A DNA stretch of 63,767 nt, counting the filler. It is 6 parts of 6 records of this genome, joined end to end, with 100 filler letters (N's around TTAATTAATTAA, not from the genome) between each part and the next. Parts side by side here need not be neighbours in the genome. Positions count along the whole stretch, not along the records: positions 50,973 to 58,607 come from SRR31156797_18529; 5 more parts are not named here. One strand, written 5' to 3'. This document shows, piece by piece, positions 18,257 through 58,707 of the stretch. The notes below the pieces were generated by a model that had not been told where the DNA came from, did no database searches, and saw only the letters and a program-made list of their open reading frames with translations. Within the stretch, counting starts at the first letter, position 1, and each line of letters opens with the position of its first letter. Position numbers and translations under genes: made by a program.

Positions 18257-19621
18257 ATGAAACCATCACTGATTCTCATCAACCCCTGGATTTATGATTT
18301 TGCGGCCTACGATCTCTGGAGCAAGCCTTTGGGGCTTCTTTCTCTGGCAACGGATCTCAGGCGAAGGGGGTTTGAGGTCCATCTCATGGACTGCATGGAC
18401 GTGGATCACCCCGCCATGATGGAACGCTCATCGCTAAAGCTACCCAAGAGGCGGCAATACGGCACCGGAAAATTCTGGCGTCAAATCGTCCCGAAACCGA
18501 TTCCCCTCAAAGAAACCGATCGACCTTACAGCCGCTACGGGCTCTTGCCGGAAATATTTGAAGAGGGCCTGAGGCGGGTGAAAAACCCTTCGGCCGTCCT
18601 GGTGACGTCTCTTATGACATACTGGTATCCCGGGGTTTTTGAGGCGATCCGGCGGGTTCGAAAAATACACCCGGAGGTGCCGGTCATTTTAGGCGGTGTA
18701 TATGCCAGGTTGTGCCGGGACCACGCCATCCAATTTTCGGGAGCGGATCGGGTGGTGTCAAAGCAGGGCATTCCCGCCATATATGAAACGTTTCAGGATT
18801 ACGGAATTTCCATTCCCAATGGAACACCCGATGCCGGCATGCCCGGATATCCCGCTTTTGACCTGTTAAGCAAAATTCACTACATCTGCCTCATGACCTC
18901 CACCGGCTGTCCCAATCGCTGCCATTACTGCGCGAGCCATTTCCTCTTCCCTAGGTTTGTTCAGAAAGACCCGGGTGAAGTTCTGGAGGAAATCCTCCAC
19001 TGGCACGGAACTTGGGGTATTCGGGATTTTGCTTTTTACGACGACGCTTTGCTGGTGTCATGGGATAATCACCTGGGGGTGCTCCTTGACCATATTGCCC
19101 GCCTCAATCTTCCCATCAGATTTCATACCCCCAATGCCATTCATGTGAGGGAAATCACGAAATCCGTGGCCGGGCTTCTCCATCAAACCGGGTTTCAAAC
19201 CATTCGACTGGGTCTGGAGGTTTCCGACGGCAGCAAACGCTGGAACCTGGACCATAAACTCTCAAAAGGTGATTTTGCAAATGCCATGGAACATCTGCTA
19301 AATGCCGGATTCGACCCCAGGCAGATCGGCGCTTACATCATGATGGGACTGCCGGGGCAATCCCCGGATGTGGTCGCTGAAACCATTCATCATGCGGATC
19401 GTTGCGGCAGCATCCCCTACCTTGCGGAATACTCCCCCATTCCCCACACCCGGCTCTGGGAAAAGGCCGTGGCCCACTCGACCCATGATCTTTCATCGGA
19501 ACCCCTGTTTCATAATAATTCGCTTCTGCCCTGCTGGGACAATGCTCAGAAAAGCCAGGTTCCCCGCCTGAAACGGCTGGTTTCCCGGGTTCGGGAAAAG
19601 TACCGCAAAAAAAATATATAA
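18257..19621 (+). CDS. B12-binding-domain radical SAM protein of unknown function
   Basis: INPWIYDFAAYDLWSKPLGLL, TSLMTYWYPG, ILGGVYA; GCPNRCHYC; FYDDA, HTPNA. Confidence 0.85.
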   Translation: MKPSLILINPWIYDFAAYDLWSKPLGLLSLATDLRRRGFEVHLMDCMDVDHPAMMERSSLKLPKRRQYGTGKFWRQIVPKPIPLKETDRPYSRYGLLPEIFEEGLRRVKNPSAVLVTSLMTYWYPGVFEAIRRVRKIHPEVPVILGGVYARLCRDHAIQFSGADRVVSKQGIPAIYETFQDYGISIPNGTPDAGMPGYPAFDLLSKIHYICLMTSTGCPNRCHYCASHFLFPRFVQKDPGEVLEEILHWHGTWGIRDFAFYDDALLVSWDNHLGVLLDHIARLNLPIRFHTPNAIHVREITKSVAGLLHQTGFQTIRLGLEVSDGSKRWNLDHKLSKGDFANAMEHLLNAGFDPRQIGAYIMMGLPGQSPDVVAETIHHADRCGSIPYLAEYSPIPHTRLWEKAVAHSTHDLSSEPLFHNNSLLPCWDNAQKSQVPRLKRLVSRVREKYRKKNI

Positions 19622-50972: not shown

Positions 50973-51190
50973 AATGAAGAGCCCGTCGGCTTGAGACAAA
51001 TTATTATATAATAACACAATCCAAATACTCATTATATAAAATGCACTAAAATATTAAACGCCATTGTACTCAAAGAACATATTACAATTTTCACAGAAGT
51101 TAATAAAAACATGGATGACATAAATTAAATCATTCTGAAATCCGTTCTATTCGCATTCAATTAATAAAACCAATCTTGAATACGCATTTA

Positions 51191-51832
51191 TTAAAAATAT
51201 ATTTCTGTTATAATATTATTAAAACCAACCCCTCTTCGAATTAACAATTCACGCACATCCATTACCATTCTTGTGCTGCCGCATATATAGAAATTAATAT
51301 TCGCAGGTATAGACTCCATTTCACTGATAAATTTCGTAAGCCTCCCTTCAAACATATTATCACCTGCATCTTGTGAAGCGCATCTTACATAATCGCTTAA
51401 AGCGTTAAATTCATCACTAAAATACATGTCCGTTTTTAAGCGCCCACCCTGAATTAATCTTAAAGGCTTCTGCCCACTTTTAAACATGCTGTGAAAGGGC
51501 GCAATACCCGTTCCGGTTGCAATCCACCAGGCAGGTTCGTTATTGAAAATAAACTTCCCGTGCACTTTGGATACTAGTATTTTATCTCCAATATTAACAT
51601 CTGCTAATGAAGGGGTTAGCAAACCATCTTCCTTCACATTAAAAAGTATAGCAACATTCTTTTCAATATTTCCGCTACAAATACTATATAAACGAGCATC
51701 CTTCATCGATGGCATTTTAATACCTATAATTTGCCCCGGTTTGAAATCAAACTCCCGCTTAAATTCAATCACAAATACCTTAGGTGCAATTTCAGTTTTA
51801 CCAAGTATTGTAGATTCAAAAAACTTACTCAT
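51191..51832 (-). CDS. Ferredoxin-NADP reductase-like FAD/NAD(P)-binding oxidoreductase
   Basis: FKPGQ, RLYSI, IATGTGIAPF, FYICG, C-terminal EIYF. Confidence 0.88.
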   Translation of the reverse strand: MSKFFESTILGKTEIAPKVFVIEFKREFDFKPGQIIGIKMPSMKDARLYSICSGNIEKNVAILFNVKEDGLLTPSLADVNIGDKILVSKVHGKFIFNNEPAWWIATGTGIAPFHSMFKSGQKPLRLIQGGRLKTDMYFSDEFNALSDYVRCASQDAGDNMFEGRLTKFISEMESIPANINFYICGSTRMVMDVRELLIRRGVGFNNIITEIYF

Positions 51833-51876
51833 TTAAAAGGTTTTGTTCTAATACAATTAAGTCAGTTTAAGGTTTA
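51826..51876. repeat. Direct repeat copy 1 (start and upstream region of the FNR-like gene)
   Basis: TACTCATTTAAAAGGTTTTGTTCTAATACAATTAA-N8-AAGGTTTA. Confidence 0.85.
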
Positions 51877-52009
51877 GATTATCTATACAAGAACTTAATT
51901 AAAAAGTGATTCAGCCAACAAATTGATTATTACAGAATAATTTCAATAAAGATCAAAATATCATAGAAAAATATATATTTTTATCCATCCAAATAAAAAA
52001 AGCAGCAAT

Positions 52010-53065
52010 ATGAAACTAATCCCAACATTCTTGATTTTAATAGCATTATTTCAACTTTTTTCATCGTGTAAAGAGAAAAATGAAATTGAAGAAACGCAAA
52101 TACATCACGATTCCATAAACAGTTTTGGAGGTGCACTTTGGAGTATTTATAAACCGGGTATTGATGAACAAGACCAATGCTATTTCCCCTCCACTTATTC
52201 TTATAGAGCGTTTGAATTTGAAGGTGAAATATTTGCTTCCACAAGCCATCATATTTCAAAATTGAATAATGAATGTTGGGAATCAATTGAACTCGGATAC
52301 GATAATGTATTTGGAACTATAAACTCCGAATTATATATGTGCCCTAGACATGCAGAAACGGGTAAGAAGATTTTTAAATATACTAATGGATATTGGCAAT
52401 TAGCCCCTTTGTTTAATGATTCTATTTGCATGTATTACACTTCTAATAACGGAGTAACAGATTTTATTCAATTTGAAAACAGTGTTTTTTTCGCATTTCA
52501 AGGTACTGATCCAAGTGTTATAGAATATAGAGACCATAAGTTTCAATGGAGGCATGATTTAAAAAAATACACTAGCAGATTTAAAATTGATAACGAGGAC
52601 AGGCTTTGGTTTCTAAGCTGGCAAACTAATATGGGAGATACAAGTACAATTACAGAATATCTATATTACATTAAAAATGAAAATCTGGATTCAATACTTT
52701 TGCCTAATTCTCTTCAAAAAAACGATATAAATGCCATAAATGACAATAATGGTATTATTGTGGGCACAGAAGACAATGGCGTTTTCAAACTTACAGAATC
52801 AGGGTGGATTGATATTTCCAATGAATACCCTTCAGAAAGAATAGTTGATATTACATTTGATAAAAATGGAGAAATGTGGCTTACAACTTTTGATATTGGT
52901 ATAGCACATCTAACTCAAAATGGTTGGGAGATTTTTGATGAAACAACTCCACTTAATGAATACTTCATTAATCCTGGTAAAATGTTTATTGACTCAAAAA
53001 ATAATATCTGGATATCTACATGGTATAATGGCCTGGTAAAATACAAGGGTGTGGCTTTTGATTAA
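52010..53065 (+). CDS. Lipoprotein with beta-propeller (two-component regulator propeller-like) repeats
   Basis: Lipobox LFSSC; repeats IDNEDRLWF, FDKNGEMWLTT..GI, IDSKNNIWIST..GLVKY. Confidence 0.78.
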   Translation: MKLIPTFLILIALFQLFSSCKEKNEIEETQIHHDSINSFGGALWSIYKPGIDEQDQCYFPSTYSYRAFEFEGEIFASTSHHISKLNNECWESIELGYDNVFGTINSELYMCPRHAETGKKIFKYTNGYWQLAPLFNDSICMYYTSNNGVTDFIQFENSVFFAFQGTDPSVIEYRDHKFQWRHDLKKYTSRFKIDNEDRLWFLSWQTNMGDTSTITEYLYYIKNENLDSILLPNSLQKNDINAINDNNGIIVGTEDNGVFKLTESGWIDISNEYPSERIVDITFDKNGEMWLTTFDIGIAHLTQNGWEIFDETTPLNEYFINPGKMFIDSKNNIWISTWYNGLVKYKGVAFD

Positions 53066-53073
53066 TTATAAAC

Positions 53074-53124
53074 TACTCATTTAAAAGGCTTTGTTCTAAT
53101 ACAATTAAATGCTAGGAAGGTTTA
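53074..53124. repeat. Direct repeat copy 2
   Basis: TACTCATTTAAAAGGCTTTGTTCTAATACAATTAA-N8-AAGGTTTA; 34 of 35 nt identical to copy 1 in the first block. Confidence 0.85.
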
Positions 53125-53166
53125 ATTTGTTTTTGCCAGAAAATCCTTATGAAAAGGATAAGGGTC

Positions 53167-53196
53167 AAAAAAATGAGCGGACTCCCCCCGCTCATT
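53167..53196 (-). terminator. Rho-independent terminator of the blaI/blaR1-like operon
   Basis: Minus strand AATGAGCGG-GGGGAGT-CCGCTCATT followed by a T run. Confidence 0.8.
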
Positions 53197-53277
53197 GGCC
53201 TTTCTTGTGTATATAGTTTTATATTATGATTCAAACCGCCTCACGCCCAATCACACAAAACACTAATATACAAACAC

Positions 53278-55044
53278 TTACTTCTTTCTCTTTTTATTAG
53301 CGTCTTCTAATTCTTTAAGTCTTTTTTCAAGCTCAACTTGCTTTTTCTTAAGTTCTTCGTTTTCCTTTTCAAGCTGCTTTGTTCTTGAATTATCATTGCT
53401 ATTGTATGTAGTATTAGAGCCTGGGGAATCAACTTCAATATTACCAAAAGCACTAAACCCTGCAGATGCACCGCCCAAAGCCGTAGAAACAATCCCCTCA
53501 ACATTGAGGTTCCCAACAACAAATGAGGCCACATCCATTCCTGCTTTTGCTGCATTCACAGACGATTCAATAATGGCAGGATCAACTCCGTCAGCTTCCA
53601 TTTCACGTCGCATTTCAATTTCCATTTCCTTGCGAGCCTCTTGTATTTCGAGGGCGGCTTTTTTCATTTCATCATTTATGCCTTCCTTTTTAATTTCCTC
53701 GGAAGCTTCTTTCATTGCTTTAGCTGCTTCTTGCATGGCTACATTAAGAATACCATTCAAGTTTATTCCATTAATGCTTTTATTAATCTCCTGCATCATC
53801 TGTGAGGAGAACTGCGAGTTGGTTTCAGACATAGCTATTTCAATTGCTTTCTCAATAGCTTCTTGTTGCTCCGGCTGAAGTTTTTCGGTGTTTTTAACCG
53901 CCACATTCATTAAACTGTCACGGTTTTGATTCGTATTTTGCTGCAGAACAGTATCATTAGCATGCATTAACGAATGGGTTGGGTTGTTTGAAGTAAACGA
54001 TGCGAGCATAAGGCCTCCCGCAATTATACCTGCTGCGATAATTCCTTCAATAAAATTTGTTTTCATAGTTTTTTCTTTTTGTAATCGGTTAATACGTTGT
54101 AATACACTACCTCTTTTTGCCGAAAATGCCATGGCAAGCCCGGCGGGTTCTGTTTGTTTAATTTGCATTGCTGCAAGGGTTTTTATATACTCAATTTTAT
54201 TACCAGTTGCATCTACCGCAATATTATCGCAACTATTTTCGCGTTCGGAGCGCACCTGAGCCGATATGAGCCATACAGCAGGATGGTAAAAGAACAGCAT
54301 TTCTACCATTGATTGCAGTAGGTTGAATAAATAGTCATTGCGCATTATATGAGCCAGTTCGTGGGCAATAACAGCTTCAAACTCTTTTGGTGTTAATCCG
54401 GTTAAAGCGCTTATGGGGAATAGCACAACAGGCTTTATGGCTCCTAAAGTTACGGGTACCCTGGTCAGTGGTGAAAAGAACGCTTCCACCTTTCGTTTTA
54501 TCCCCAGTTTATGTACAAGGTTTTTGACGATTTCCTCCCACTCATCGCTAATTGGAGACAGTTTTTGGGTTCGCAATCTATAGGTGTAAATAAGCCCTCC
54601 TGTAAACCTTATCATCATAAATAACATTCCCACAAACCAAATCAGGCAAATAACATTGAAGTTTCGCTGGAAAAATGCACGAAACTTTATTGTGTTTGGG
54701 TTAATAACTGATGCGTGTTGGTTACTTTTCTTGTTTGAATGAGCATTGTCCATGGAAAGTATATTCTTGAGGTAATCAGGGTTATTTAGCATTTCTGTTT
54801 TTAAAGCCTGCTTTTCCGAGGCGTACTGATAGGCATTGATAAATGTGATGCCTGCCCAAACCATTATACCCACAAGGGCTACAAACGAAAGAAAATATTT
54901 GATTTGCGCGCTCTTTTTCTTTATAAAATACAAAACGAGAAAAAGTAAAATGGCTATTATTGCGCCTTGCCAGAGCGAGTGAATTAGCATCCACCCTAGA
55001 GCTTCTGTTAATTCTGCGGAGAATATTGCTGCTATTATATTCAT
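53278..55044 (-). CDS. BlaR1-like M56 family membrane metallopeptidase with a helical, non-penicillin-binding C-terminus
   Basis: LIHSLWQG, KPVVLFP, AHELAH, FYHPAVW, ERENSCD, LQRINRL. Confidence 0.9.
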   Translation of the reverse strand: MNIIAAIFSAELTEALGWMLIHSLWQGAIIAILLFLVLYFIKKKSAQIKYFLSFVALVGIMVWAGITFINAYQYASEKQALKTEMLNNPDYLKNILSMDNAHSNKKSNQHASVINPNTIKFRAFFQRNFNVICLIWFVGMLFMMIRFTGGLIYTYRLRTQKLSPISDEWEEIVKNLVHKLGIKRKVEAFFSPLTRVPVTLGAIKPVVLFPISALTGLTPKEFEAVIAHELAHIMRNDYLFNLLQSMVEMLFFYHPAVWLISAQVRSERENSCDNIAVDATGNKIEYIKTLAAMQIKQTEPAGLAMAFSAKRGSVLQRINRLQKEKTMKTNFIEGIIAAGIIAGGLMLASFTSNNPTHSLMHANDTVLQQNTNQNRDSLMNVAVKNTEKLQPEQQEAIEKAIEIAMSETNSQFSSQMMQEINKSINGINLNGILNVAMQEAAKAMKEASEEIKKEGINDEMKKAALEIQEARKEMEIEMRREMEADGVDPAIIESSVNAAKAGMDVASFVVGNLNVEGIVSTALGGASAGFSAFGNIEVDSPGSNTTYNSNDNSRTKQLEKENEELKKKQVELEKRLKELEDANKKRKK

Positions 55045-55430
55045 TACTGTTCCGATTTATCGATCTCATTAATAATACGCTTGATCTCTTCAAGTTCTTT
55101 TGCGCTTGTTTTCTTATTGCCCAACAATTGCATAAGCAACCCGGAAGCCGACCCGGCAAATGTGGTATCTAAAAAGCGGTCCAATAGTTTTCCACGAGTT
55201 TCCTCCTTTTTGATATTTGAGAAATAGAGATGACTTTTCCCGTTTGGCTCCCTGCGCAGTAAACCTTTGGCCGTCATGTTCTGCATAATTTTTAAGGCTG
55301 TAGTGTAACCCACATCTTTTTTTTCTACCAATTTTTCATGTATTTCTTTTACCGTGAGCGGTTCCTTTTTCCAAAGAATGTTTAGGATTTCCAGCTCTGC
55401 CGCAGTAGGCATATTTGTATTTTTGTCCAT
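55044..55430 (-). CDS. BlaI/MecI/CopY family repressor
   Basis: PTAAELEILNILW, GYTT.LK.MQ, KGLL.R, FAGSA..L; TAATG coupling to the M56 gene. Confidence 0.93.
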   Translation of the reverse strand: MDKNTNMPTAAELEILNILWKKEPLTVKEIHEKLVEKKDVGYTTALKIMQNMTAKGLLRREPNGKSHLYFSNIKKEETRGKLLDRFLDTTFAGSASGLLMQLLGNKKTSAKELEEIKRIINEIDKSEQ

Positions 55431-55442
55431 ATACAATCGAAT

Positions 55443-55490
55443 TACGATGTTTGTCGTACAAATATATACGACAATTGTCGTAATAACAAA
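55443..55490 (-). promoter_or_regulatory. Bacteroidota sigmaA promoter interleaved with two BlaI-type palindromic operators
   Basis: Operators TACGA-TGTTTG-TCGTA (55443-55458) and the perfect palindrome TACGACAATTGTCGTA (55467-55482); minus-strand TTTG-N20-TATATTTG (-33/-7). Confidence 0.8.
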
Positions 55491-55808
55491 ATATTTTTGC
55501 ATTTAATTCTAGAAAAGGGGCTAATTGCCTAATAATCATGTACCATACTGCTCCTTACAAATATTATTTGAAATTAACCATATGAGATTTTATTGTGTGA
55601 TTTAGCAAAATTCAAGAAAGGCATTTTTATCACGTTGATTTGACAAAAAAGGCATTTCAGTAATTTCATTTAGTCTATCCTTAAAATCATTAAGTATGTC
55701 ATTTTAAGTACCTGTATTTTTGTAGTGTTGTTTGATAAATCACTTTTATAAACTATAAAAATAAATTTCGAATTAATCTAAAACACAAATAATAAAAATA
55801 CTAAAGAA

Positions 55809-56624
55809 ATGAGTAAAAAAGTTGCAATTATTACAGGTGCTAGTTCAGGAATGGGAAAATCTGCTGCATTTAATCTTCATGAAAAAGGATATAAGGTTTA
55901 TGGTATGGCAAGACGAACCGAAAAAATGAACGCCCTTAAAGAAAACGGAATGGAAATTCTACCACTAGATCTTACCATAGATGAATCCATCGTAAAGGCT
56001 GTAGACACAGTTCTGGAAAAAGAAGGTAGAATAGATGTGTTAATCAACAATGCTGGTTATGGTTCTTATGGTTCTGTTGAAGAAGTGCCAATTGAGGAAG
56101 CAAAACGCCAGTTCGAAGTGAATTTATTTGGTTTATCGCGTATTACGCAATTGGTATTGCCCACTATGCGAAAGCAAAAATCCGGTAGAATTGTCAATAT
56201 TTCTTCAATGGGTGGGAAAATGTACACGCCATTTGGAGCATGGTATCACGCTACAAAATTTGCATTGGAAGGATGGAGCGATTGTTTAAGAATTGAAGTG
56301 AAGCAATTTGGTATTGATGTAGTTATTGTAGAACCTGGAGGCATACAAACTGAATGGGGCGATATTGCAATGTATAATTTGGATAAAGTATCAGGTGATG
56401 GCCCTTATGCTACTTTGGCAAAGAAAGTAATAGCTTCTTCAGATAAGAATAAAAACAAACTAACCCCGGTTGACGTATTAGGTAAAGAAATAGCAAAAGC
56501 AGCTTCCGTAAAGAAACCCAAAACAAGATACCTCAAAGGTTATTTAGCCAAACCACTAGTAGGGATGAGAAAATGGTTGAGCGACCGTACGTTTGATAAA
56601 ATGCTAATGAGTCAAGTAAAATAA
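55809..56624 (+). CDS. Short-chain dehydrogenase/reductase
   Basis: TGASSGMG, NNAG, ISS, YHATK, VEPG. Confidence 0.93.
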   Translation: MSKKVAIITGASSGMGKSAAFNLHEKGYKVYGMARRTEKMNALKENGMEILPLDLTIDESIVKAVDTVLEKEGRIDVLINNAGYGSYGSVEEVPIEEAKRQFEVNLFGLSRITQLVLPTMRKQKSGRIVNISSMGGKMYTPFGAWYHATKFALEGWSDCLRIEVKQFGIDVVIVEPGGIQTEWGDIAMYNLDKVSGDGPYATLAKKVIASSDKNKNKLTPVDVLGKEIAKAASVKKPKTRYLKGYLAKPLVGMRKWLSDRTFDKMLMSQVK

Positions 56625-56642
56625 TATTAGTACCTTTCCATT

Positions 56643-57557
56643 ATGACAAAAGAATTTGTAATAAACTCAATTAGTCAAGCACACCAATCTGTTGGACTTC
56701 CAGCGCCCAAACATCCATTGGTTTCAGTTGTGAAGCCGACAGATTACAGGCCTAAAATAGATTTTAGAGGACTGAAAGTGATCAATAATCTATATCAGGT
56801 TACACTTAAGCAATTGGGGTGTGGAAATTTATTGTACGGAAAGAACTCATATGATTATGAGGAAGGTACTTTGGTGTTTACTGCCCCGGGACAAGTCACA
56901 ATTTTTGATGGTGAAATACCAACAGAAAGAGAATCGGATAAAGGCTGGACACTGGCTTTTCATCCCGATTTGATAAGAAAATCTAGTTTGGCAGACAAAA
57001 TGAGTCAATATTCATTTTTCAACTATGAGGTGAATGAAGCCCTTCATCTCTCAGAAGAAGAGTTAAAAACAATTGAAGAGCTCTTAAATAAAATAGTTAA
57101 GGAGTACAGCCAAAACTTAGATAAACACAGTCAAAATCTTATCATTTCGAATATTGAACTGTTGCTTGACTACTGCACCAGGTTTTACGATCGGCAGTTT
57201 TATACACGTTCTAATTTGAATCTTGATTATGTCTCAAAGTTTGAGAAGTTGTTGAAGAGATATTACGAAACAGAAGATATTGTTGAAAAGGGATTACCTA
57301 ATGTGCAATATCTGGCAAGAGAATTAAACTTCTCTTCTAACTACTTAAGTGATTTATTAAAAAAGGAAACCGGAAAAACAGCACAAGAGCACATACATCT
57401 TTTTGTAATTGAAAAAGCAAAAAACAAGCTGTTAAATTCTAAAAGTTCAATAAGTGAAATCGGGTACTCACTTGGTTTTGAATATCCGCAACATTTTAGC
57501 AATTTGTTTAAATTAAAAACAGGATTTAGCCCCAGTGAATACCGGAGTTTAAATTGA
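56643..57557 (+). CDS. AraC-family transcriptional regulator (Bacteroidota type)
   Basis: YGKNSYDYEEG, FHPDL, RFYDRQF, YLSDLLKKETGK, GFEYPQHFS.LFK. Confidence 0.92.
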   Translation: MTKEFVINSISQAHQSVGLPAPKHPLVSVVKPTDYRPKIDFRGLKVINNLYQVTLKQLGCGNLLYGKNSYDYEEGTLVFTAPGQVTIFDGEIPTERESDKGWTLAFHPDLIRKSSLADKMSQYSFFNYEVNEALHLSEEELKTIEELLNKIVKEYSQNLDKHSQNLIISNIELLLDYCTRFYDRQFYTRSNLNLDYVSKFEKLLKRYYETEDIVEKGLPNVQYLARELNFSSNYLSDLLKKETGKTAQEHIHLFVIEKAKNKLLNSKSSISEIGYSLGFEYPQHFSNLFKLKTGFSPSEYRSLN

Positions 57558-57676
57558 GTATTCTTTATCCAAGTTATAAAAGCCAAAACGGTTCAGGTTA
57601 GTACTTGAACCTTTTTGCATTTATTTACTATATTGTTATCCGACAATAAAGTAGAATTCCCTCATCTCCCCATGCT

Positions 57677-57703
57677 CGCGCTGAATTGCATTCAGTGCGT
57701 TAC
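57677..57703 (-). repeat. REP-like palindrome
   Basis: Minus strand GTAA followed by CGCACTGAAT-GCA-ATTCAGCGCG. Confidence 0.45.
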
Positions 57704-57856
57704 ACTCTTTTTCTTTCAACGAATTCCAACAGCCGTTTGTGCTGTTTAATAATCACAAGTGAGCACACAAGAAAACCCCGTAACTGTTGTTTTAGCAACT
57801 AAATTTATCTACCTTTAAATGCTAAACGTATTAATAAACGTTTATAAAAAAATAAA

Positions 57857-57938
57857 TAACCGTACCTCAAAGGTACGCATAGCCACCCAACGGTGGTTGG
57901 CTATTGGGAATAGGTGCGGATATTTACTAGTTGTGCCG
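57857..57938 (+). mobile_element. Structured att-like site ending in the core G|TTGTGCCG (left cassette boundary)
   Basis: Hairpins CGTACCT-CAA-AGGTACG and ATAGCCA..TGGCTAT, then TTTACTA-GTTGTGCCG; the core is the exact reverse complement of CGGCACAAC at 58582-58590. Confidence 0.6.
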
Positions 57939-57978
57939 CATGCAAGAACCAAAGTACTAAAATAAGGATTTAGAATAA

Positions 57979-58248
57979 GTGAAAAAGATTCATAAAGATA
58001 AAAACGGGCATGAATTCATAAAGGAATCTTACTTTGTTGGAGGGAAAATGAAATTCCGTAGAATTTATATAATTGATGGTATTCCTGCAGATGAATTTTA
58101 TGAGAAAAATGCGACTGACTTGGATTTCTATATGAATGGAGATTATCATTTAATGAGTGAGAATGAATCATATGAAGATGACGATGAGCAAATCAAAACA
58201 AAAATCGATCCATCTGATAACGAACATGATAAAGATTTACCTTTTTAG
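57979..58248 (+). CDS. Small hypothetical protein with acidic C-terminus ending DLPF (cassette cargo 1)
   Basis: 89-aa ORF starting about 50 nt after the GTT core; tail SYEDDDEQ...DNEHDKDLPF. Confidence 0.7.
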   Translation: MKKIHKDKNGHEFIKESYFVGGKMKFRRIYIIDGIPADEFYEKNATDLDFYMNGDYHLMSENESYEDDDEQIKTKIDPSDNEHDKDLPF

Positions 58249-58310
58249 ATTAAAACAATCTCTAAATATATTGATTTTGGATGTGAATAAAGTACGAAAA
58301 GCAATAACGA

Positions 58311-58571
58311 ATGGATGATAAACAAATAGAACAGGTTAAAATAATACTTTCAGACTGGAACCCTCTTGGAGACCAAGCTTCAAAAGTTGATGATTTAAAT
58401 AATTATGAGACTGAGGCAGTTGATATTTTATTTCACATTGACAAAAAAAGTCCACTTACCAGGATTAATAAAATAATGACTGAAGTAATTTATCAAGCAT
58501 TTGATGTTTATCATGAACCAAAAGATACGGTAAAATACGCGGAACGAATTCGAAATACATTTAATAAATAA
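58311..58571 (+). CDS. Small helical protein, DUF1871/YugE-like (cassette cargo 2)
   Basis: L.DWNPLG...YETEAVDI motif, 86 aa. Confidence 0.65.
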   Translation: MDDKQIEQVKIILSDWNPLGDQASKVDDLNNYETEAVDILFHIDKKSPLTRINKIMTEVIYQAFDVYHEPKDTVKYAERIRNTFNK

Positions 58572-58574
58572 AAA

Positions 58575-58607
58575 TGCACGACGGCACAACAATGTGTATA
58601 GTGCATA
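58575..58607 (+). mobile_element. Left arm of an attC-like site (inverse core CGGCACAAC), truncated by the contig end
   Basis: TGCACGACGGCACAAC-AATGTGTATAGTGCATA; the core lies 10 nt after the cargo stop codon and the assembly breaks inside the site. Confidence 0.62.
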
Positions 58608-58707
58608 NNNNNNNNNNNNNNNNNNNNNNNNNNNNNNNNNNNNNNNNNNNNTTAATTAATTAANNNNNNNNNNNNNNNNNNNNNNNNNNNNNNNNNNNNN
58701 NNNNNNN
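58608..58707. other. Artificial contig spacer
   Basis: N run with TTAATTAATTAA. Confidence 0.98.

Follow-up and report, generated by a model that had tools for sequence, protein, structure and literature searches.

A two-gene cassette between an attI-type site and a truncated attC-like site suggests the start of an integron-like array in a probable Bacteroidales contig

The question raised by this locus is whether two small genes at the end of a low-GC contig, bracketed by a 9-mer and its exact reverse complement, form a mobile cassette of an integron-like system, and if so, of what kind. The window, by which we mean the whole stretch of 63,767 nt that was analysed (1-63767), consists of six contigs with GC contents of 52, 52, 33, 30, 34 and 42%, which need not all come from one source organism. 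Contig 5 (50973-58607; 7.6 kb, 34.5% GC) carries the cassette at its 3' end. The apparent break at 58608 is a spacer joining contigs (58608-58707, no strand; N44-TTAATTAATTAA-N44), that is, an artificial six-frame-stop joint between concatenated contigs and not biology. We read 57839-58607 as the start of an integron-like array, composed of an attI-type site, a two-gene first cassette and a truncated attC-like site, and give this reading a probability of about 0.85. A single cassette is in view, so that the word array stands for something we infer rather than see.

The two ORFs (57979-58248 and 58311-58571) are co-oriented, and GC content is 29-35% over 57850-58599. The 9-mer GTTGTGCCG occupies 57930-57938; its exact reverse complement, at 58582-58590, begins 10 nt past the stop codon of the second ORF (58569-58571), and the pairing extends imperfectly beyond the 9-mers (GTTGTGCCG-CATGCA versus TGCACGA-CGGCACAAC). 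The ORF pair, the inverted 9-mers, the 10-nt distance and the extension had been listed in the initial annotation, and all are present. Taken alone, they would be compatible with an ordinary two-gene operon in which the 9-mers are a product of chance, or with a small transposon or MITE that has the 9-mers as its terminal inverted repeats. The 9-mer has three matches in the window versus 0.20 expected, the third being at 18709 in an unrelated contig of 52% GC, and by our estimate an inverted 9-mer pair is expected by chance about once per 750 nt and is thus not rare; 67 imperfect inverted pairs were counted in 1 kb. The weight of the inverted pair comes from its position and from the relatives, not from the repeat by itself. 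In relatives, base-identical boundaries occur in dozens of unrelated contexts with variable cargo, the right repeat extends into a 130-nt structured site, and a pairing rule between neighbouring sites (below) holds array-wide; a transposase is absent. The operon or transposon reading is already contradicted by these findings, and we consider it extremely improbable.

In the integron-like reading, the left 9-mer contains an R' core, GTTGTGC, which together with its extension GTTGTGCCGCATGCA occupies 57930-57944 (+ strand), and the same 14-16 nt open many cassettes of the first gene (ORF1) behind different attC sites. The crossover is placed at G|TT, so that the cassette would start at 57931 and run to 58607 (+ strand), with the two ORFs followed by the first 24 nt of the attC-like site. 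As had been proposed, the start of the cassette is complementary to its own R'' (9/9 bases, 57930-57938 versus 58582-58590). The claim that the cores are non-canonical proved partly right: GTTGTGC does differ from GTTRRRY, but at one position only, and across the family of sites the GTT is kept in 74 of 81 and the AAC in 73 of 81.

ORF1 (57979-58248, + strand) has a GTG start and encodes a conserved small protein of 89 aa with an acidic, disordered C-terminal tail. Its homologues form 354 clusters at E≤1e-3, with identities of up to 85%. It has no family match in Pfam or NCBIfam, and its matches in the ESM Atlas are unnamed clusters only. In the AlphaFold model, residues 1-40 have a pLDDT of ~80 and most of residues 49-83 one of <50, and a fold search with this low-confidence model returned ribosomal-protein noise alone and no fold match. 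A metagenome scan with ORF1 gave 37 loci. A model-detected attC site ends <140 nt upstream of ORF1 in 17 of these, and the next attC follows after one or two further, variable genes, likewise in 17 of 37; in 14 of those 17 loci, the bases leading into the attC are identical to the gcacgacg-GCACAAC of the window or have one or two differences. The partner genes of ORF1 encode a 498-aa reverse transcriptase, a ParE gene product with its antitoxin, PNPOx-like, GNAT, DinB-like, flavodoxin-like and DUF1871 proteins, and proteins without assignment. One unit with base-identical cuts recurs in many contexts, and it is therefore a mobile cassette by definition. Throughout these loci (L124-L160), ORF1 with a conserved leader of ~50 nt is the first cassette gene, the second gene varies and the ends are constant. 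ORF1 thus looks like a conserved “chassis” gene, whose product may act as a regulator, as an antitoxin-like protein or as an accessory factor of recombination.

ORF2 (58311-58571, + strand) encodes 86 aa and is a relative of DUF1871 (PF08958), modelled as an all-helical bundle with a pLDDT of 92.5; the best fold matches of the model are 3r2x_C and 1u84 (TM 0.58-0.61, E 0.5). It has 35 homologues, one of which is named DUF1871 by NCBI, and 26 of the 35 aligned relatives reach PF08958 at E≤0.01 (best E 8e-6); the ORF2 of the window itself has no match to PF08958 at that threshold. TcpK, the sole match of a sequence search of the PDB (E 0.33), was rejected. A scan of species-representative genomes with ORF2 gave 44 loci. 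In L001 (ORF2 80% identical), the cassette runs from GTTGTGCCGCATGC to GCACGACGGCACAAC, with ends as in the window, and is followed by a full imperfect palindrome of 131 nt that closes on GTTGGGC and scores 86 bits with covariance model R1 (below). A second cassette from the same genome (L055) shares both the start and the end and holds an ORF1 homologue and, in place of the DUF1871 gene, a GNAT gene; its attC-like site is cut by a contig end and scores 59 bits. Many other Bacteroidota homologues of ORF2 have the identical ending directly 3' of the stop codon. A search of related genomes for the motifs had been recommended; the cassette ends recur in L001, in L055 and in many metagenome loci, and the proposed identity as an integron-like cassette is borne out by constant ends, variable cargo and full ~130-nt sites in homologous cassettes. 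Homologues of DUF1871 are found in Proteobacteria, Desulfobacterota and further phyla as well (L037, L040 and L042 in Woeseiaceae, L035, L043 and others), where they have GC-rich palindromes on their 3' side that resemble ordinary attC sites. This suggests that the DUF1871 gene moves between phyla as a cassette.

The right site is the 5' part of an attC-like site (58575-58607, + strand), made up of an extended R'' (TGCACGACGGCACAAC, with its core GCACAAC at 58584-58590) and the start of L'', where the contig end cuts it. Sites of this type were modelled with covariance model R1, which was trained on 23 aligned sites from arrays downstream of recombinases; the RNAalifold consensus of the 23 sites is a 13-pair stem with compensatory changes at 12 of the 13 pairs. 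A custom covariance model had been suggested as a check, and R1 found 100 sites (46 in 23 sources, and 54 in the 37 metagenome ORF1 loci, all of which are outside the training set), every one on the coding strand. Full sites in homologous cassettes score 59-86 bits. Over 57600-58607, R1 has a single match at 58584-58607 (+ strand; model positions 1-24, 3'-cut, 7.7 bits, E 0.085). This match is weak by itself, but the right site lines up in register with six ~130-nt sites, complete or almost so, which close on GTT. With filters off, R1 gave spurious matches only over 50973-58607 (best E 0.87) and missed the truncated right site. A simple finder of AAC...GTT palindromes had false positives and low sensitivity, and R1 was used instead. 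The homogeneity of the ~130-nt sites resembles that of the Vibrio repeats. By analogy with the relatives, the missing right part would be ~105 nt of an imperfect palindrome that closes on GTT, with more cassettes after it. The family of sites is not universal, because three of nine recombinase-downstream stretches gave no match (L119 and L121) or a weak one (L114, 27 bits).

A further regularity of the family concerns neighbouring sites, and was examined in 81 R1 matches from 26 loci with at least two matches (single-match loci and one 5'-truncated match were dropped). In 37 of 55 neighbouring pairs, the four bases after the GTT of one site perfectly complement the four bases before the AAC of the next. 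The mean complementarity of R'(i) and R''(i+1) is 3.29 of 4, versus 1.60 in shuffled pairs, and 0 of 10,000 shuffles attained the observed mean; complementarity of the two cores within one site is at chance level (1.63). We regard this chain rule as an integron signature, which would arise if exchange occurs at G|TT and the hairpin is completed by the cassette's own first bases. The G|TT boundary assumed in the initial annotation is upheld by this rule, and by a sequence from a different study (X2, below) that diverges right after GTT.

The consensus stem has 1x1 mismatches and a longer 3' spacer, and the check for extrahelical bases found no clear bulges; an asymmetry between the strands is nevertheless seen in the R1 matches, 100 of 100 of which share one strand. 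A nearly invariant A lies opposite an invariant A inside the stem (columns 23 and 116 of alignment A2), and the 3' R-L spacer exceeds the 5' one by 2-3 nt. It is possible that the A.A mismatch and the long 3' spacer serve as strand or recognition marks in place of extrahelical bases.

The left element had been described as a multi-hairpin structure preceding the left core. The hairpins are real: outer arms at 57853-57867 and 57912-57926 are 87% complementary and enclose inner hairpins at 57861-57877 and 57879-57904, with fold z-scores of -2.5 (+ strand) and -3.6 (- strand). Their nature was corrected by an nhmmer profile built from 28 sites located 3' of recombinase genes (26 Bacteroidales and two Flavobacteriia loci; the window was excluded, as were 8 of 37 loci that had no core by regular expression, and L045, which duplicates the site of L021). 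Searched against both strands of the 63.8-kb window, the profile has one significant match (E 7.6e-6), which is on the + strand, spans 57839-57937 and covers profile positions 8-108 of 112 with GTT in register. Its 21.8 bits are at the low end of the true sites (17-44 bits). In ~1 Mb of loci, 37 of 37 profile matches lie 3' of recombinase genes, including L074, L088 and L111, which were recovered from among the eight recombinase loci that the regular expression had missed; the left junction of L055 was undetected by the profile. Elsewhere the profile matches only beside recombinase genes, and it matches here; the left multi-hairpin is therefore an attI-type site, not an attC.

The layout shared downstream of the recombinase stop codons is a box, a hairpin, a second box, an A/T-rich run and GTT. 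In the window (all on the + strand), these correspond to box copy 1 (AGGTACGCATA, 57871-57881), the central hairpin (57879-57904), box copy 2 (AGGTGCGGATA, 57912-57922), TTTACTA, and the GTT crossover core. The closest look-alikes by eye are L099, L110 and L095. Read on the minus strand, the hairpin at 57861-57877 and the T-run that follows it score as a terminator, which may be chance or may insulate the array. Within the first 30 nt after the recombinase stop, upstream of attI, the Bacteroidetes -7 motif TAnnTTTG was seen by eye in many of the loci L082-L111, where it may act as the promoter of the array. The + strand of 57558-57978 lacks this motif, and matches to a sigma-70-like promoter upstream of the cassette do not exceed the shuffle frequency, so that no promoter was recognised.

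In the relatives, the attI-type site lies 40-170 nt past the stop codon of a recombinase gene; in the window, an AraC-family gene (56643-57557) is the nearest upstream gene instead, followed on the + strand by a terminator-like hairpin with a T-run (57590-57611) that marks the end of the non-cassette chromosome. Further upstream are an SDR gene and a BlaI/BlaR1-like pair, the latter on the minus strand (53278-55502) and consisting of a BlaR1-like M56 peptidase sensor of 588 aa and a BlaI-like repressor. R1 finds no attC-like site within 50973-57900, and because the upstream genes are not separated by such sites, the cassette is the first of its array. The earlier description of it as the first cassette agrees with this, and with the attI match being confined to 57839-57937. 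Searches of Rfam over 57000-58608 gave only chance-level matches (E ≥ 4). The host chromosome is low in GC and probably of Bacteroidales. The AraC protein was tried as a probe for empty sites, but 62 of 301 Bacteroidales genomes match it at ≤60% identity with many paralogues, which makes synteny unusable. A DNA search with 57560-57975 in five genomes returned the L055 junction as its sole match.

Neither on the 7.6-kb contig nor elsewhere in the window was a recombinase or a remnant of one found (best tblastn E 0.12), as the initial annotation had stated for an integrase. The attI-type site would then either be served in trans or be a relic, that is, a platform whose recombinase was deleted or moved by rearrangement, leaving the attI and its cassette or cassettes frozen and recombination over. 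A relic would account for the missing recombinase, and it fits the exceptional character of the arrangement (all other profile matches adjoin a recombinase) as well as the 290 nt upstream of the site, which have no match in ~1 Mb of loci. The public runs argue against it. In X2, a run from a different study, a contig of 175 nt agrees with 57822-57932 but for three differences (97% identity) and continues with unrelated sequence right after GTT, which points to exchange at the site after the lineages split. Other X2 contigs reach the end of the AraC gene, with 57716-57821 uncovered, so that the linkage between attI and AraC is not bridged by a single contig. Run X1 is the probable source of the window and is not an independent sample. 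Here a 2649-nt contig covers 57300-58104 with 0 differences and joins the SDR/AraC region, the attI site and ORF1; the join is thus not peculiar to one assembler. Other X1 contigs share 57850-57903, and one of them, at a depth of 158.5 versus 163 for the present contig, could hold the site's second copy within one genome, which would also weigh against a relic. The independent X1 assembly likewise stops at 58607, where summed contig depth rises to 4265 versus about 150, as expected for a multicopy repeat and as had been predicted for the right site. Runs X4 and X5 yielded short conserved pieces only, and nothing on locus or habitat. That an orphan attI lies next to ordinary chromosomal genes and has different occupants in two studies suggests that it is served in trans, and we consider the relic unlikely, if well ahead of the other alternatives discussed here.

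A tyrosine recombinase linked to such arrays had been proposed as something to look for, and such recombinases were found. In L021 the layout is complete: a 375-aa tyrosine recombinase directly upstream of the cassettes and co-oriented with them, an attI-like site whose last bases are GTTGTGC, a small ORF with a DUF1871 gene, and an attC. G001 has an array of ≥28 kb with a 379-aa recombinase at its head. Homologues at E≤1e-60 occur in 98 of 301 sampled Bacteroidales genomes, often at contig ends; among the best 120 of 7989 matches to a member of the recombinase family, none carries a Bacteroides name.

The recombinases carry PF00589 and PF13495, and they allow a further alternative to be weighed, namely that the locus is a fragment of a classical integron (a CALIN) served by a true IntI with the IntI-specific domain. 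The AAC/GTT cores, the chain rule and the hairpin covariation are as in attC sites, and the integron integrase model TIGR02249 is the second-best NCBIfam match of the array-associated recombinases. The scores on that model (202-211 bits, matched in two pieces) are nevertheless below its cut-off of 265, and none of five array-bearing genomes has a match above it; scores on NF040815 (XerA/“integron integrase”) are 213-226 bits, with a cut-off of 220. The alignment of the recombinases is unbroken over 269 residues for XerA (5hxy) and over 207 for the XerC-like 4a8e, whereas that to IntI4 (2a3v) falls into two stretches with nothing opposite residues 188-242. By these alignments, the recombinases of the relatives are Xer/XerA-like and lack the IntI-specific insertion, which has been described as essential to integron function (PMC8138268; PMC4792948, in the parts consulted). 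A CALIN is like this locus in having cassettes and no neighbouring integrase, with mobilisation in trans possible, but it requires two or more attC sites, with no attI, and here there is one truncated attC-like site on the contig and a recognisable attI-type site. The label CALIN-like given in the initial annotation is thus not retained. With recombinases that lack the IntI insertion and are co-oriented with their cassettes, the system is better called integron-like than an IntI integron or CALIN, and we rate a classical integron fragment as very improbable. Co-orientation is also known from “inverted integrase” integrons, in which intI points in the direction of the cassettes (PMC4889954, in the portion consulted).

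In several respects the locus and its relatives do behave as classical integrons: cassettes are bounded at G|TT, the attC sites (in relatives) are imperfect palindromes with AAC/GTT cores in which structure is conserved over sequence, the start of a cassette complements its own R'', the attI adjoins the recombinase (in relatives), and the cargo is promoterless and co-oriented and includes toxin-antitoxin pairs. The differences are the recombinases, which lack the IntI-specific insertion, and the symmetric mismatches, including the conserved A.A, with an asymmetric R-L spacer rather than clear bulged bases. Judged from sequence patterns, the cassettes of these little-studied Bacteroidales arrays obey the classical integron rules.

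Among known systems the nearest is rAID-1 (recombinase-associated acquired interbacterial defence) of gut Bacteroidales, whose arrays have been described as “reminiscent of integrons” (Ross et al., 2019, bioRxiv 10.1101/471110). As given in the main text of that preprint, rAID-1 is defined by a 5' XerD-like recombinase >44% identical to BF9343_RS08045 of B. fragilis, at least two co-directional downstream genes with GC ≤41%, orphan immunity cargo, a conserved motif on the 3' side of the recombinase and motifs that recur between the genes, and it is reported from 226 of 423 Bacteroidales genomes. The frequency is thus high in Bacteroidales in both cases (226/423 there by that text, versus 98/301 with a recombinase homologue here). 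GC content at the present locus is within the ≤41% limit, but discriminates poorly, since the flanking chromosome is also <41% GC. The locus differs from rAID-1 in having no recombinase in cis, no recognised immunity gene in its cargo (ORF1 cassettes carry the reverse transcriptase, ParE pair, GNAT, PNPOx-like and other genes named above), and an environmental rather than gut-associated host. A later text notes that rAID-1 members are often on short scaffolds without a recombinase, and this 2025 preprint, in the part available to us, still calls the rAID “biogenesis mechanism” open (PMC12247911). The rAID-1 text gives motifs and not a G|TT boundary, a chain rule or hairpin covariation, which its figures or supplements may contain. 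Set beside rAID-1 by its published description, the present locus is most likely a member of a rAID-like family of Bacteroidales.

The claim that such systems are poorly described in Bacteroidota therefore holds for one literature and not for the other: rAID-1 arrays were described in 2019, while integron surveys report next to none. In the portions consulted, IntegronFinder surveys list hardly any integrons for Bacteroidales or Flavobacteriales, the one complete integron that IntegronFinder 2.0 names for Bacteroidetes proper is in Salinibacter ruber, and a 2024 preprint counts Bacteroidota among clades “previously found without any integrons”; a 2021 review, as far as its accessible part goes, includes Bacteroidota in its integron listing. 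A search of open main texts found no paper that gives the G|TT rule, covariation of attC sites or an attI profile for arrays of this kind.

The homologies of the sites, the cassette boundaries, the pairing rules, the multicopy status and the variable occupancy of the attI-type site are shown by the data above; for the mechanism, we infer the enzyme, single-strand folding and current activity as follows. A Xer/XerA-like tyrosine recombinase, of the family that adjoins arrays upstream and co-oriented in relatives, would excise the cassette at G|TT by attC x attC or attI x attC exchange. In the resulting circle, the first bases of the cassette, TTGTGCCGCATGC, would pair with its own R'' flank, GCACGACGGCACAA, to give a complete folded hairpin site, which could then recombine with attI.

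These results bear on a gap between two fields, in that integron surveys picture Bacteroidota as nearly integron-free, while the type VI secretion field describes recombinase-associated arrays there. The locus and its relatives yield base-precise, testable sites (attI, G|TT, and attC with a covarying stem), which the attI profile and R1 now detect, and complete systems exist in cultured hosts, e.g., L021 and G001. They also raise the mechanistic question of how hairpin sites are handled by a recombinase without the IntI-specific domain. A more far-reaching idea, which we put forward tentatively and at somewhat less than even odds, is that Bacteroidales and Flavobacteriales harbour a second lineage of true integrons, in which a Xer/XerA-like enzyme lacking the IntI insertion recombines ~130-nt folded attC hairpins at G|TT, and that the window holds a detached attI that still exchanges its first cassette in trans. 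If so, the “immunity arrays” of rAID-1 would be one face of a phylum-wide cassette system missed by standard integron tools, and the IntI insertion would be dispensable for structure-specific recombination of attC.

Two further observations concern the organisation of array-bearing genomes. In the complete genome G001, two copies of the recombinase lie 1.25 Mb apart (L015 and L016), each ~20 kb upstream of an identical DUF1871 cassette, and platform and array appear to have been duplicated. In another genome (G002, contig C29, 215659-229849), at least six short frames of 65-113 aa match only the C-terminal part of the integron-integrase model; they lie on one strand, 1.4-4.5 kb apart, and look like repeated recombinase fragments inside an array.
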